Shown: piece after piece, positions 22,930 through 31,327 of the stretch
Layout of the letters: the number at the start of each line of letters is the position of its first letter
Numbering within the stretch: the first letter of the stretch is position 1
Origin: a virus
Lineage: Duplodnaviria > Caudoviricetes
Virus record (IMG/VR): IMGVR_UViG_2724679183_000002
Location: 32,001-96,000 of that record
Reading direction: 5' to 3' (one strand)
Length of the DNA stretch: 64,000 nucleotides
Made by a program: the position numbers and the translations under genes
Notes under the pieces: model-generated
The model's input: only the letters and a program-made list of their open reading frames with translations
Databases searched by the model: none
What the model was told of the DNA's origin: nothing

Positions 22930-23139
22930 CTACTCAGAGAGTCCTTCAGTTTCTAGGGGTACAACTTCACTATCGCTTTTTAGAGTAAAATCAATTGGTT
23001 CTGTTTTGCTTTCAATCTCTCTTAGATATTTAGACAGTGAGTGAATATGAATGCCATCATTTTTATACTCAATGATTTGATCTTCATCTACATTTACAGT
23101 GCATTTTTCAAAAGAGTATTCTTTCTTACCTTTAGCCAA
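22930..23139 (-). CDS. yonK: YonK-family protein
   Basis: 69 aa, TTG after GGAGG. Synteny. Confidence 0.65.
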   Translation of the reverse strand: MAKGKKEYSFEKCTVNVDEDQIIEYKNDGIHIHSLSKYLREIESKTEPIDFTLKSDSEVVPLETEGLSE

Positions 23140-23174
23140 ATTTGATTCCTCCAATTATTTGTTTTATTTACGTA

Positions 23175-23416: not shown

Positions 23417-23596
23417 TTGAGAGACAAAGTTTTGAATGCCTTTATTATAATAGGTGTTTTGTTGATAGTTGGAGCGGTTACTGTTTTTAAAGATTTTGAA
23501 TATCACCAATATCTTCGTTTTGGTGGGGCAATATTGATTGCTTTTGGCTATATGTTTGGTTATGACAAAGTAAAAGCTAAAAAAAAGAGTAAATGA
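23417..23596 (+). CDS. Small two-TM membrane protein (59 aa)
   Basis: AGAGGTG RBS, TTG start. MRDKVLNAFIIIGVLLIVGAVTVF...GGAILIAFGYMFGYDKVKAKKKSK. TATAAT upstream. Confidence 0.65.
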   Translation: MRDKVLNAFIIIGVLLIVGAVTVFKDFEYHQYLRFGGAILIAFGYMFGYDKVKAKKKSK

Positions 23597-24352
23597 CTTT
23601 TAAATTCTATTGTTCTAGTTATTTTCTTACCCCTCTCACCTACACCAGTAACTCACGTAGGAACGTAAGCCTTCGGATCGTCAAGCAAATCTGAAAATAA
23701 CAAAAGACGTCATTATGACGTCTTCAGGAACTCCTTGTACATCATGGTACATGAGCATAAAAGGCTAGTTTTCGCTGTGCGGAATCCAGCTGGCTCCTTC
23801 TACACCTGGTAGATGAGCTAATTCATTTAAGGAATGCGAATGAAGGAAATCAATCCTGCGTTATTGCCAACTACTCAACCATAAAATGGGTTAAATAGTC
23901 GCCGAATAACCTCTGAATTCGCAGTAACTGACTTTGGAAGGAATCCCAAAGCTGGACGTATCGAGGTATCTTTTTTGTCCCCCACGCGGGAATTAAACGG
24001 TTACTCTCGTTTAATGTATTCAAAAACAAATTACGAGAAGGAAAGACCCATTATAAGCCTTCTCTATGGCATTTTCAGTCTCTCTTGTTAGGTTACACGC
24101 CTTATTGAGAAACAAAGCGTCTCAAACGCTCGCCATTTATTTTGCACAGTTTTCATCAACCCGTGTAAGGAGGTATGTGCATGGGAAAGGTAAGACTCCA
24201 TTCAGAACATTGAAAGGAGATGAAGTGAATAAAATAGTGAAAATGAAAAGGCAAGACCGAATATAATCCTTTTCTGTGAAATGGGAGCGGTGATCAAGCG
24301 CCCAAAAACCATTACACTTATTTTGCGAGTATAGAAGACTCGCTAACCCGGA

Positions 24353-24869
24353 AAAAATTTTGATGACCGCATAATAAGCAGTAAAGCTTACAAGGGCATT
24401 ATTTAAAGGTAAGGAAGACGCATCTGCCTTACCTAAATGCAAGCCGAAGCAGTGCACCGCAATTAATATTCAGGTTACATGCCACCCATAATAAGACCCT
24501 GATGGGATTCAGTCGCAATTATATTAATCGTTAAGTCTTATCGGCATGTTTAGCCCGATAATAGCCATTTACCTCGAACCCTCATAAATGACTATTATCC
24601 GACTAACCACAATGACCAGTTGTAGCTTTGAAGCCGAATTTAATGAAATTTGTTCATTTGAAAGTGAGAATAGACATGTTTACAAAGAAGCTTAGTCCAC
24701 ACGCTGGGGGCAATACCCCGCTAATATCCACTTATATGAAACCCTGGCACTCCAAGTCCTCAAATAAATGAATATTAGCCGAGAACTGATATCCCACGTA
24801 CCAGTAATCAGCTTATTATTGACGACACCCCCATGTCATCAATAAAGAACTCTAATTAATTAACCCGGA
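24353..24869 (-). ncRNA. Putative large structured ncRNA (~500 nt)
   Basis: Multiple 12-21 bp helices whose mismatches become G-U pairs only on the - strand, plus a candidate loop pseudoknot. No credible ORF. Confidence 0.55.
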
Positions 24870-24871
24870 GA

Positions 24872-25011
24872 TGAATGCGGGAGAGGATTTGCACCTCTCA
24901 TGGATGACAATTCGCCAACTATTAGTCTTCTCTTGAAGGTCGGCCTCGAGATTCCCGAAGGTCAGTCATACCACCTCGATCTACGCGTTTACCTTTTTCG
25001 CCACCGCATTC
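24872..25011 (-). ncRNA. tRNA-like RNA with expanded anticodon domain (not a canonical tRNA)
   Basis: Acceptor GAATGCGG/CCGCATTC, D-arm TGGCG-AAAAAGGTAAA-CGC, T-arm GAGAGG-TGCAAAT-CCTCTC, and an ~85-nt branched insert in place of the anticodon arm. Confidence 0.65.
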
Positions 25012-25039
25012 TGTGGGAAAAGAGGGGAAGGACACTACA

Positions 25040-25315
25040 TTAAGCTTTCACTGCGTCTTTGAGAGCTTTAGCAGCCTTGAAGGCAGGTGCTTTTGTAGCT
25101 GGAATATCAATTTCCTCACCTGTTTGGGGATTTCTCCCTTTACGAGCAGCACGTTCACGAACTTCAAATGTTCCAACTCCAGGAATCTTGATTGATTCAC
25201 CTTTTGTTAGTGTTTCAACGATGACATCAAATACTGCTTCTACTTTAGGAGTAGCTTCTTTTTTAGTTACTCCTAATTTTTCTGCAACTTCTCCAACAAA
25301 TTCTGTTTTATTCAT
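25040..25315 (-). CDS. yonN: HU-family DNA-binding protein (YonN)
   Basis: MNKTEF...GTFEVRERAARKGRNPQTGEEIDIPA...FKAAKALKDAVK, a classic HU sequence. Confidence 0.95.
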   Translation of the reverse strand: MNKTEFVGEVAEKLGVTKKEATPKVEAVFDVIVETLTKGESIKIPGVGTFEVRERAARKGRNPQTGEEIDIPATKAPAFKAAKALKDAVKA

Positions 25316-25566
25316 GTTTTATTTCCTCCTAGTGATTTTGTTTATTTTTGTGTTAAAGTATAATTACGGTAACGTTTGGACTTTTTTGAAAAATGGGAGA
25401 CCTACTCGCCCTTTTATGTGGAAATTAGCTTTCTTTCTCCCTTATGGCGATTATCTCAAAAGGGGCTTTCAGCCCAGTCATATCAAGGGTTCAAGGCACT
25501 TTTTTTGTTAAACTTTTTCCGGTAAAATCGCTGTACCCCTTGGGGGAGTAAGGCTCACAGCACTTT

Positions 25567-31090: not shown

Positions 31091-31291
31091 GTGCTTGAGA
31101 AAGTGGGTATATCAATTGCTTTTCTTATTCCTATAACGGTTCTAATCATCAACTGTTTGATGATAGTTGAGAAATTCCAAAACATAAAGAAGAATAAGAA
31201 AAGCAAAAAGGCGAAAGAGATAGACAAAAAAATAAAGCGTATACGCAAGCGTCTCCGACCAAAGAGACAACGCAAACGTACACGCAAATAA
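31091..31291 (+). CDS. yonT: Type I toxin YonT-like
   Basis: MLEK.GI..AFLI..TVL.IN.L.IVEK TM helix plus basic tail KRIRKRLRPKRQR. Confidence 0.88.
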   Translation: MLEKVGISIAFLIPITVLIINCLMIVEKFQNIKKNKKSKKAKEIDKKIKRIRKRLRPKRQRKRTRK

Positions 31292-31327
31292 CATCTCTAA
31301 AGGGGATTAATTTCCCCTTTAGTTGCT
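31230..31327 (-). ncRNA. SR6-like antitoxin RNA (ends approximate)
   Basis: Minus-strand TG-n-TATAAT (31334-31342) and TTTACA -35. The transcript would overlap the yonT 3' end. Hairpin CTAAAGGGGA/TCCCCTTTAG. Known SPbeta arrangement. Confidence 0.6.

Follow-up and report, generated by a model that had tools for sequence, protein, structure and literature searches.

The segment at positions 24344-24869 of the window (the whole 64,000-nucleotide stretch of viral DNA analysed here) is structured non-coding RNA read from the minus strand; it covaries among its relatives and has no Rfam family. It forms the 5' part of a long, structured and gene-free transcript region, built of separable modules, at the head of a phage late operon. 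Its best-conserved module, a pair of hairpins some 70 nt long, has homologues beside Abi_2 toxin genes in other elements. By analogy with known toxin-RNA pairs, we give an even chance to a model wherein the stretch is a modular late leader whose two-hairpin module copies the partner RNA of an Abi_2 toxin, without the toxin gene, and may serve as an antitoxin mimic.

Fold, strand and covariation

The stretch belongs to a 1.9-kb gene-free gap in an SPbeta-type Bacillus provirus, bordered by a yonN-like HU gene and a yonK-like gene. Its minus strand folds at -174.6 kcal/mol (z -7.37; none of 100 shuffles was as good), and its plus strand at -120 kcal/mol (z -3.69). An earlier note on this DNA had assigned the RNA to the minus strand from apparent G-U mismatches, and the relatives bear this out: 43 distinct sequences show 765 G-U against 55 A-C cells across the structure, an excess that fits a minus-strand RNA. 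The helices that the note described at 24816-24845 (12 bp), 24720-24779 (16 bp), 24551-24605 (core 24557-24600) and 24407-24434 are all present in the sequence and in the minus-strand fold, as are the nested pairings CAUGCC/GGCAUG and GAUAAGAC/GUCUUAUU. Substitutions among relatives, which could have broken these helices, keep the pairs through compensatory changes. Paired cells make up 96.8% of 5820, compared with 38-45% for slid partners, and 22 pairs changed on both sides, compared with 7-15 for slid partners; none of 500 shuffles reached the observed pairing and covariation values, for a structure that was derived from the very alignment tested and in which two main clades supply many of the changes.

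Protein coding was considered and rejected. The sole long reading frame (24137-24457, minus strand, 106 aa) stays open in the window's own copies alone and carries 2-5 stops in the relatives shown. On the plus strand, the window has an ATG after a Shine-Dalgarno-like AAGGAGG (24167-24173), and SIOphi has no start codon there. Together with the covariation and the lack of an Rfam family, the broken frame upholds the description of the stretch as a structured non-coding RNA. Its modules are collected in Table 1.

Table 1. Modules of the stretch, in the 5' to 3' order of the RNA
Feature	Position	Strand	Remarks
5' direct-repeat copy, 9 nt, UCCGGGUUA on the RNA strand	24861-24869	-	SPbeta-family similarity starts here, downstream of the yonN-like gene
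H1, 12-bp stem, loop UGGGGG	24816-24845	-	13 pairs, 5 changed on both sides; 93.5% of cells paired
H2, 7-8 bp, just 5' of H3	24785-24805	-	98.0% paired, little variation
H3, 16-bp outer stem	24720-24779	-	Pair 153/212 GC:19 AU:18 UA:1
Small hairpin GGGG-UAUUG-CCCC	24707-24719	-	Pair 215/225 GC:19 AU:18
H4, 8-bp stem with loop CUGGUCA, adjoining the start-site box on its 5' side	24605-24627	-	Pair 310/324 AU:18 GC:17 GU:2
H5, 16-bp stem, start-site equivalent 24596 in its 5' arm	24557-24600	-	Fold and covariation
Conserved pseudoknotted domain, model R1, 163 nt	24394-24556	-	Alignment of 33 sequences
Two-hairpin module, model R2	24397-24467	-	Covariation in both stems; homologues in other elements
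Hairpin GUAAGC/GCUUAU	24374-24391	-	Covariation alignment
3' direct-repeat copy, 9 nt	24344-24352	-	Exact match in the window

The start site and the head of the late operon

Forrest et al. (2017; PMC5467207) place a YonO-dependent transcription start of SPbeta at position 2225998. Transferred through a genome segment that is 100% identical to the SPBc2 gap (G042:C1:2225616-2227296), and assuming that the G042 numbering equals that of NC_000964.3, this late-operon start corresponds to 24596 in the window, inside H5 and at its foot, 1.3 kb upstream of yonK. The same authors mention an 'unannotated non-coding RNA' upstream of yonK, where the YonO late operon begins, in one sentence that does not give its structure, extent or function; theirs is the same locus in a relative of this provirus. 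The titles and abstracts that we searched on yonN, yonK and SPbeta non-coding RNA include none describing the yonN-yonK RNA, and the available portion of Irnov 2010 gives no candidate RNA between these genes. The SPbeta pac site lies elsewhere, between yonR and yonP, and a packaging site was rejected as an explanation of the stretch. A self-cleaving ribozyme as the source of the mapped 5' end found no match among Rfam ribozyme families in 23600-25400 (E up to 10).

Contigs from RNA libraries (four runs from four studies) cover relatives of the stretch; they are blind to strand, ends and level, and DNA carry-over is possible. H5 is crossed by contigs of three runs (X15 record 2, of 1516 nt, X17 record 4 and X18 record 9). 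Some runs have no RNA-contig cover over parts of the stretch, for example X18 at 24323-24395, from which we conclude nothing. X18 record 9 stops at 24407, on the last (3') base of the second module hairpin, which hints at an RNA end weakly at most. Small shares of matching words in metagenome and food runs have no bearing on habitat.

The start site falls within a box, UCGGAUAAUAGUCAUUUAU, that occurs twice, at 24584-24602 and at 24764-24782 (two matches were found in none of 100 shuffles). Each copy directly follows a hairpin of variable sequence, and the 5' arm of H3 is a paralogue of the start-site box with 2 mismatches in 19 positions. In the distant B. pumilus and G010 rows, similarity begins at the start-site box, and an unrelated hairpin occupies the H4 site. 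This arrangement could be read at the level of DNA, with the hairpins at about 24557-24627 and their paralogues at 24720-24805 serving as the YonO promoter, recognised as duplex or extruded DNA; Forrest et al. (PMC5467207) state that this promoter was undetermined. We consider that reading unlikely. The helices upstream of the start show 332 G-U against 22 A-C cells, which fits a minus-strand RNA, RNA-library contigs of three runs cross the start site, no copy of the box was found in all 134,076 bases of SPbetaL2, and the proposal leaves 24344-24556 unexplained.

A chain of modules rather than one ornate RNA

ROOL (RF03087) and GOLLD (RF01998) are large structured RNAs of Firmicute phages, often encoded near tRNA genes. 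The earlier note had proposed that 24344-24869 is one such RNA of about 500 nt, or a member of a new class, with its 5' end freed from an upstream tRNA mimic. The strong fold energy is in keeping with this, as are the UCCGGG sequences at both ends, which could close a domain in the minimum-energy fold, and the recurrence of the 3' module in phage tRNA arrays. Rfam release 15 searched over the whole window at the gathering score, however, returned only the SR6 antitoxin, and 23600-25400 searched to E 10 gave four weak matches, none of them GOLLD or ROOL. As 24344-24869 is covered by none of the Rfam families, it is neither GOLLD nor ROOL; with the same tool, phage locus L184 returned a ROOL at 293.8 bits, so a ROOL of that kind is within its reach. 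The closing helix is not conserved, conserved RNA runs past 24344, and the stretch is split by its published internal start site and by natural variants in which parts are lost independently. It is instead a chain of smaller modules, and a single ornate RNA is, in our judgement, very improbable. The neighbourhood of tRNA genes survives in another form, in that the two-hairpin module recurs in tRNA arrays, and in L184 it shares a locus with the ROOL, about 4.7 kb away.

Three further elements of that proposal fared variously. The direct repeat is real, with two exact copies of TAACCCGGA in the window, one starting at 24344 and the other at 24861 (0.22 copies expected; at least two in 3 of 100 shuffles), but the exact repeat is not conserved, because the 5' copy reads TCCAGG or TCCTGG in most relatives. 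The candidate pseudoknot between UGGGGG and CCCCCA does not hold: the loop is near-invariant, the C-run is the 3' arm of the small covarying hairpin in Table 1, and five of the 43 rows keep the loop without the partner region. For the tRNA-like element, we looked in 24873-25011 for a tRNA cloverleaf or for the core of a tLRNA, in which a 5-bp T stem, with a UUYRANY-like loop of 7 nt, continues directly from a 5-8 bp acceptor helix. A T-arm-like hairpin (AGAGG-UGCAAAU-CCUCU, 24881-24899) abuts CCGCAUUC, a potential pairing partner of GAAUGCGG (25004-25011), about 120 nt upstream. That helix is absent from the minimum-energy fold, ARAGORN reports no tRNA in the window, Rfam (RF00005 for tRNA) gives no match, and the fold, with z -0.24, is nothing out of the ordinary.

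Two known RNAs touch this neighbourhood. Skipping-rope RNA (RF02924, threshold 36.7 bits) has no match in the window, including 23600-25400 searched to E 10. In Goe11 it scores 31.3 bits, below threshold, right after yonN, where the window instead has the acceptor and T-arm-like feature, outside the flagged stretch; Goe3 and phage loci L171 and L180 have it at 47-56 bits elsewhere in their loci, and in the tRNA arrays of L004, L171 and L180 the two-hairpin module is its neighbour. DUF3800-VIII RNA (RF03075) scores 37.3 bits at 23625-23690 in the window, below its threshold of 40.2, and 44.7-58.8 bits in five SPbeta-family relatives and G010 locus L156. No DUF3800 protein was found in the provirus.

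The pseudoknotted domain

R1 has two long-range helices, CAUGCC/GGCAUG (24543-24548 with 24478-24483) and GAUAAGAC/GUCUUAUU (24535-24542 with 24490-24497), a hairpin at 24499-24512 and, after these, the two-hairpin module. The hairpin loop CCCA (24503-24506) pairs with UGGG (24485-24488) to form a pseudoknot, in which pair 70/87 is CG in 32 sequences and UA in one. Among the 33 aligned sequences, 94.3% of cells are paired (34-50% for slid partners) and 14 pairs change on both sides (2-5 for slid partners). The domain is kept as far as one B. pumilus genome and three genomes of the genus Bacillus. It is found whole in only 3 of 72 YonO loci, from a search across many Firmicutes (all three are Bacillus), and among 91 Bacillaceae genomes in 6; parts of it also turn up by themselves. 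Missing from 69 of the 72 YonO loci, R1 is thus not tied to YonO.

Natural deletions mark dispensable parts

The leaders are mosaics whose pieces are often gained and lost. The hairpins at 24605-24845 are found only in close SPbeta relatives and are partly deleted in some phages, and the segment between H3 and H5 is missing in SPbetaL4, SPbetaL7, G046 and IMG/VR loci L148 and L149. The window's own H5 lacks about 33 nt of distal stem present in relatives, and Goe12 and phi3T have an unrelated UUGGG/CCCAA hairpin in place of the one at 24374-24391. The largest deletion is that of SPbetaL2, a complete deposited phage genome with a named host, in which nothing separates the yonN stop codon from the two-hairpin module; both the hairpin of the start site and the pseudoknot half are gone. 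The upstream modules are therefore dispensable in nature. Each of the 25 SPbeta-family phage records with a match to the stretch, SPbetaL2 included, keeps the two-hairpin module, a count that covers matching records only.

The mosaic structure and the lack of a toxin gene in the provirus would also suit a functionless relic, a module left behind in SPbeta-type phages by recombination with an Abi_2 cassette or a tRNA-array spacer. We think this most improbable, given the module's presence in every matching record and its retention in B. pumilus, G010, G023 and Herelleviridae with compensatory changes in both stems.

Homologues of the two-hairpin module lie beside Abi_2 genes in other elements

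R2, the last 70 nt or so of the R1 domain and the best-conserved module of the stretch, consists of AUUGCGGUG, a hairpin with a UUCG loop (24436-24458), a hairpin with a UGCG loop (24407-24434) and UUUAAAU; both loops are of the UNCG type. Homologues recur in the tRNA arrays of Herelleviridae and other phages, and also as a stand-alone small RNA of about 70 nt directly downstream of Abi_2 genes (AbiD/AbiF-type, HEPN) of one subfamily. The stand-alone copies have promoter-like hexamers of their own and a U-tract terminator, and they lie on plasmids and chromosomes, far from late operons. An Abi_2 frame ends 48-86 nt upstream of R2 on the same strand in 20 of 56 new IMG/VR loci, and none is present in the examined DNA of the other 36. 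A search from the protein side gave the same arrangement. In all five plasmid loci examined, a sample of the 13 records with this Abi_2 subfamily, the gene is closely followed by R2, at 37.6-69.3 bits, in copies that differ from the search pattern. The order of Abi_2 then R2 is found again in G077 and in the Bacilli genome G125. The association is not universal: 151 Bacilli genomes hold six strong R2 matches outside SPbeta, only one of them adjoining Abi_2, and Abi_2 genes occur in only 3 of 49 Bacillus species genomes, where the two that are intact belong to a different subfamily and lack the RNA. No Abi_2 gene was found in the provirus itself, so that the adjacency to a toxin gene looked for in an RNA antitoxin is seen in R2 homologues and not in the window.

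The U-tract after the second stem is strong in the Abi_2-linked copies (5-9 U) and reduced in the SPbeta-type copies; in the window it reads UUUAAAU, with three U, and is absent from the terminator scan. The Abi_2 proteins of the IMG/VR loci fall into three clades with 37-43% identity. The abiF motif (RF03085) has no match in 23600-25400 (E up to 10), in eight loci (E up to 1), five of which have an Abi_2 frame (L182 and L211 do not, L218 does), or in seven Abi_2-linked loci (E up to 5). A sequence search of the PDB with the Abi_2 protein of L166 gave no match to an Abi-type protein, and hence none to PbAbiF (8VZ6, as named in PMC12737573). No named phage record similar to the L166 locus of Abi_2 and RNA was found.

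Discussion

The main rival to an antitoxin-type function is a cis-acting leader. In this reading the stretch would be a regulatory 5' untranslated region for the YonO late operon, with a 5'-terminal hairpin that shields the transcript. The pseudoknotted domain with its terminator-like hairpin would be an attenuator, a riboswitch-like element or the binding site of a factor, and would control how far transcription continues into yonK and the structural genes. The published start at the foot of H5, ahead of yonK, fits this, as does the order of the parts, a domain, a hairpin and then a hairpin with a U-rich tail. SIOphi has the same module order upstream of its portal gene, and G010 keeps R1 with a DUF3800-VIII motif about 1 kb further on. 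At the same time, the module also forms a small RNA gene by itself, remote from late operons, SPbetaL2 does without the start-site hairpin and the pseudoknot half, R1 is absent from nearly all YonO loci, and the window's U-tract is short. We regard a purely cis-acting leader as possible rather than probable.

Overall, we favour a modular late leader that carries a putative antitoxin-like RNA. The C. difficile phi027 prophage RNA RCd22 is reported to neutralise an AbiF-type toxin by direct binding (bioRxiv 10.1101/2025.04.15.648962), and AbiFr is reported to neutralise PbAbiF likewise, in a type III-like manner (PMC12737573). The R2 homologues resemble these RNAs as two-hairpin small RNAs with a Rho-independent terminator and a promoter of their own beside an Abi_2-family gene. 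They differ in that RCd22 is encoded upstream of its abiF gene (bioRxiv 10.1101/2025.04.15.648962) and R2 homologues downstream of Abi_2, in that R2 does not match the abiF motif, and in that the R2-linked proteins form a distinct subfamily without a sequence-level PDB match; RCd22 and AbiFr also lie beside a toxin gene, whereas the module in the window does not, and RNA binding is proposed here by analogy.

On this analogy, the small RNA beside Abi_2 would be the toxin's partner RNA, and phages of the SPbeta type and of the Herelleviridae would carry that partner but no toxin, placing it within a late leader or a tRNA array. For example, consider an SPbeta-type phage in a cell armed with an Abi_2 toxin: the RNA made during infection would keep the host toxin silent, the terminator U-tract, cut down to UUUAAAU, would allow read-through into the late genes, and the pseudoknotted domain and start-site hairpin may stabilise or present the module. 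As a mimic, the module would account for 70 of the 526 bases only.

The Pectobacterium phage PhiTE carries pseudo-ToxI, which mimics the antitoxin RNA of a type III system. The likeness would be that of a toxin-less phage copy of an antitoxin-type RNA that gives escape from abortive infection, which for our module we infer; pseudo-ToxI is a repeat array, whereas the SPbeta-type module is single-copy, and no pair of sensitive and resistant hosts is known for it. In its boldest form, which we put forward tentatively and would not expect to hold in full, two unrelated families of Bacillus phages carry mimics of Abi_2 partner RNAs that disarm abortive infection, and the pseudoknotted domain is a new fold that delivers or regulates the mimic at the first nucleotides made by YonO.

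SPbeta is a model temperate phage, and the 1.3-1.9 kb of non-coding sequence at the head of its late operon is given a single sentence in the paper examined on it (Forrest 2017, PMC5467207). New here are the map of modules, two covariance-supported folds absent from Rfam, and the deletion variants that mark dispensable parts. The anti-defence hypothesis can be tested in B. subtilis by ordinary genetics. The Abi_2 family is thought to be ancestral to Cas13, and the putative partner RNA of this Abi_2/AbiF toxin subfamily was previously undescribed; if true, the Abi_2 link defines a new toxin-RNA pair, and defence RNAs may have partners or mimics among the unexplained RNAs that phage tRNA arrays contain.

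An RNA leader between yonN-like and yonK-like genes

The provirus, 140,932 bases long in IMG/VR, is matched by blastn among named phages only by Bacillus phages, the long matches being Spbetavirus records. Together with the neighbouring frames listed below, these matches place the flagged stretch within the gap between the yonN-like and yonK-like genes, a gap for which SPBc2 carries 0 annotated features. The sole sizeable reading frame in the stretch (106 aa) is broken by 2-5 stops in the relatives shown.

Features of the window discussed in the text
Feature	Position	Strand	Remarks
yonK-like frame	22930-23154		
59-aa hydrophobic frame	23417-23596	plus	antisense to the leader
DUF3800-VIII-like hairpin	23625-23690	minus	37.3 bits, below the 40.2 cut-off
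Downstream block	~24035-24343	minus	almost invariant
Flagged stretch	24344-24869	minus	
Pseudoknotted domain	24394-24556	minus	model R1
Two-hairpin module	24397-24467	minus	model R2; last 70 nt of the domain
Hairpin H5	24557-24600	minus	
Hairpin H3	24720-24779	minus	
HU-like (yonN-like) frame, 91 aa	25040-25315	minus	next after the YonO-type frame
YonO-type RNA polymerase frame, 836 aa	25567-28077	minus	
SR6 antitoxin RNA (yonT/SR6 type I toxin-antitoxin system)	31226-31325	minus	84.3 bits; Bacillus RNA

The minus strand folds at -174.6 kcal/mol (z -7.37) and the plus strand at -120 kcal/mol (z -3.69), and the helices that an earlier note had picked out from the sequence alone recur in the minus-strand fold where it had placed them. 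For comparative support we aligned 43 distinct homologues, drawn from 12 named phage records, genome loci and 34 IMG/VR stretches. RNAalifold derived the structure from 38 rows, with L143, L139, L130, L142 and L138 excluded as rearranged or partly non-homologous; helices of fewer than 4 pairs were removed, and pairs were then counted on all 43 rows. Standard pairs fill 96.8% of 5820 cells (38-45% once partners are slid), both sides change in 22 pairs (7-15 slid), and 0 of 500 shuffles match the observed pairing values; the structure comes from the same alignment, and many of the changes divide just two clades, so that independent events are far fewer than cells. G-U outnumbers A-C by 765 cells to 55 (332 to 22 upstream of the mapped YonO start site and 430 to 31 downstream), and this excess marks the minus strand as the RNA strand, bearing out in relatives what the note had read from G-U mismatches. 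Its direct repeat holds as a 9-mer occurring twice in the window but is inexact in most relatives, and the relatives lend no support to its UGGGGG/CCCCCA pseudoknot.

Transcription and the mapped start site

Forrest et al. 2017 (PMC5467207) back an SPbeta YonO start site with primer extension and leave the promoter for YonO undetermined. Positions 2225616-2227296 of C1 in the Bacillus species genome G042 are 100% identical to the SPBc2 gap. If the numbering of G042 is that of NC_000964.3, the start would be the bracketed A in GUCGGAU[A]AUAGUC, equivalent under the same condition to 24596, in the 5' arm of H5. Thus, the published 5' end would lie mid-way inside the flagged stretch. The start-site box has two copies in the window, at H5 and, with 2 mismatches, at H3, each directly 3' of a hairpin.

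Logan contigs from RNA libraries cover the flagged stretch in four runs, each from a different study, and all come from relatives with 80-99% likeness. One of 1516 nt (X15 record 2) extends from the yonN-like gene as far as 23926, and H5 is also crossed by X17 record 4 and X18 record 9. Such contigs are silent on strand and ends, and RNA libraries can contain DNA; they establish no more than that RNA-library contigs span the region continuously, the sequence upstream of the mapped start included.

The conserved RNA extends beyond 24344 into the downstream block, which X18 contigs also cover. There, a UGCACA/UGUGCA helix encloses a loop with an anti-Shine-Dalgarno-like CCUCCUU (24167-24173), and bases UUACACG of the loop might also pair with CGUGUAA ~60 nt downstream; in phage SIOphi, upstream of the portal gene, the helix is GUGUG/CACAC (four compensatory changes) around an identical loop. 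Farther on, the DUF3800-VIII-like hairpin scores 44.7-58.8 bits in SPBc2, Goe11, Goe12, phi3T, BUCT082 and the locus of G010 (a Bacillus-genus genome), above the same cut-off, and the provirus lacks a DUF3800 protein gene. The 59-aa frame, on a segment of ~330 nt that the window shares with SPbetaL1, Goe11 and SPbetaL4 and that SPBc2, phi3T and others lack, may encode a small membrane protein, for example a type I toxin-like insert.

The flagged stretch is modular

Its upstream half (24605-24869) is restricted to the close SPbeta group, and for B. pumilus and G010 the aligned similarity starts at the start-site box, with an unrelated hairpin just ahead of it. The segment between the two boxes is absent from SPbetaL4, SPbetaL7, G046, L148 and L149, a loss expected from recombination between box copies. 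In SPbetaL2 (OQ921342), a complete deposited genome with a named host, the yonN stop codon joins the two-hairpin module directly (L087 1509-1640); the deletion takes out the candidate tRNA-like element, the mapped YonO start box, every upstream hairpin and one half of the pseudoknotted domain, and no copy of the box, at up to 3 mismatches, occurs in the 134,076 bases of this phage.

The pseudoknotted domain is kept, with many compensatory changes, in a B. pumilus genome and in G010 and G023, both Bacillus-genus genomes. With a hand-drawn structure on 33 sequences, pairing holds in 94.3% of cells (34-50% when partners are slid), and changes on both sides are seen at 14 pairs (2-5 when slid). 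Its pseudoknot, a CCCA loop with a UGGG internal loop, is unbroken throughout and has changed on both sides once, to CCUA and UAGG, in B. pumilus. Model R1 recovers the whole domain from 3 of 72 YonO loci and from 6 of the 91 Bacillaceae genomes, and its halves on their own from a few more. Another prophage of G010 carries just the 5' pseudoknot half (L163, contig 14; 39 bits over model positions 7-85), with sigma-70-like frames on one side and a small-terminase-like frame on the other.

The two-hairpin module is more widespread

The module also matches Herelleviridae Bacillus phages. It lies between tRNA-Asn and tRNA-Met in Goe3, on their strand, and upstream of the portal gene in SIOphi, where a copy of the next SPbeta block follows. 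A strict pattern search of IMG/VR found it in 85 stretches. In an alignment of 56 distinct sequences, the invariance of three conserved words is built in by the pattern. Both stems covary strongly (score 0.449; 0.09-0.16 when slid), and changes on both sides are found in 172 cells (12-48 when slid); pairs showing double changes are no more numerous than in shuffles (243 of 500). In several contigs the module is preceded, at a distance of ~7-10 nt, by TTGCAT-N17-TATAAT-like hexamers and closed by a hairpin trailing 5-9 U, which gives it the look of a stand-alone ~70-nt gene.

A tRNA lies on the same strand within 1 kb in 10 of 60 loci, accompanied by ROOL RNA in one and skipping-rope RNAs in two. 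One phage locus (L184, an IMG/VR contig of 13,299 bases) combines at least 10 tRNAs, a ROOL RNA (293.8 bits) and a group I intron (97.3 bits), with the module directly upstream of tRNA-Lys. The tRNA region of Goe3 (L004 2360-2660, 2990-3030) contains several acceptor-plus-T-arm mini-elements, called as tRNAs neither by ARAGORN nor in the phage record, such as CUAGG-UGCAAAU-CCUAG, which resembles window element 24876-24903, CAGGG-UUCGAUU-CCCUG, and GUAGG-UUCGAUC-CCUAC followed by ...GCCA.

Association with Abi_2 genes

Of 56 new IMG/VR loci, 20 carry an Abi_2 (PF07751) frame on the strand of the module, its end lying 48-86 nt upstream of the latter; the proteins form three clades at 37-43% identity. 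A tblastn search with one of them returned 13 plasmid records, and in all five examined (Enterococcus gilvus, two E. faecalis plasmid kinds, Streptococcus salivarius and S. equinus) the Abi_2 gene is directly followed by an R2 match of 37.6-69.3 bits, in copies that diverge from the IMG/VR search pattern. As negative controls, two Abi_2 genes from Bacillus that belong to a different subfamily had no R2 match, and the Rfam abiF motif matched none of the module or Abi_2 loci tested.

At the same time, the association is not universal. R2 matches 10 of 151 sampled Bacilli genomes; outside SPbeta-type prophages there are six strong matches, one of them located after an Abi_2 gene, one after a PBECR4 nuclease frame, and four with no toxin family among the neighbouring frames tested. 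The provirus itself has no Abi_2 gene. In genome G238, an R2-like RNA of 39.7 bits lies 36 nt downstream of a PBECR4-domain frame (L233 836-1565). PBECR4 is a phage Barnase-EndoU-ColicinE5/D-RelE-like nuclease domain, and the frame may represent another type of RNase that has this RNA as its partner.

Discussion

In published work, AbiF-type toxins are bound and restrained by a small RNA encoded next to them, RCd22 in C. difficile (bioRxiv 10.1101/2025.04.15.648962) and AbiFr in the case of PbAbiF (PMC12737573). By analogy with these, the module would most simply be the RNA that partners one Abi_2 subfamily. A mimic of that RNA accounts for neither the pseudoknotted domain, H5 nor the upstream hairpins, and the main rival explanation, one compatible with mimicry, is that the flagged stretch is a cis-acting leader.

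If the module is indeed an Abi_2 partner RNA, its phage copies would be toxin-less homologues of it. We infer both the step from neighbour of a gene to antitoxin, by the same analogy, and that from orphan copy to anti-defence. Phages are known to escape type III systems by carrying mimics of antitoxin RNAs.
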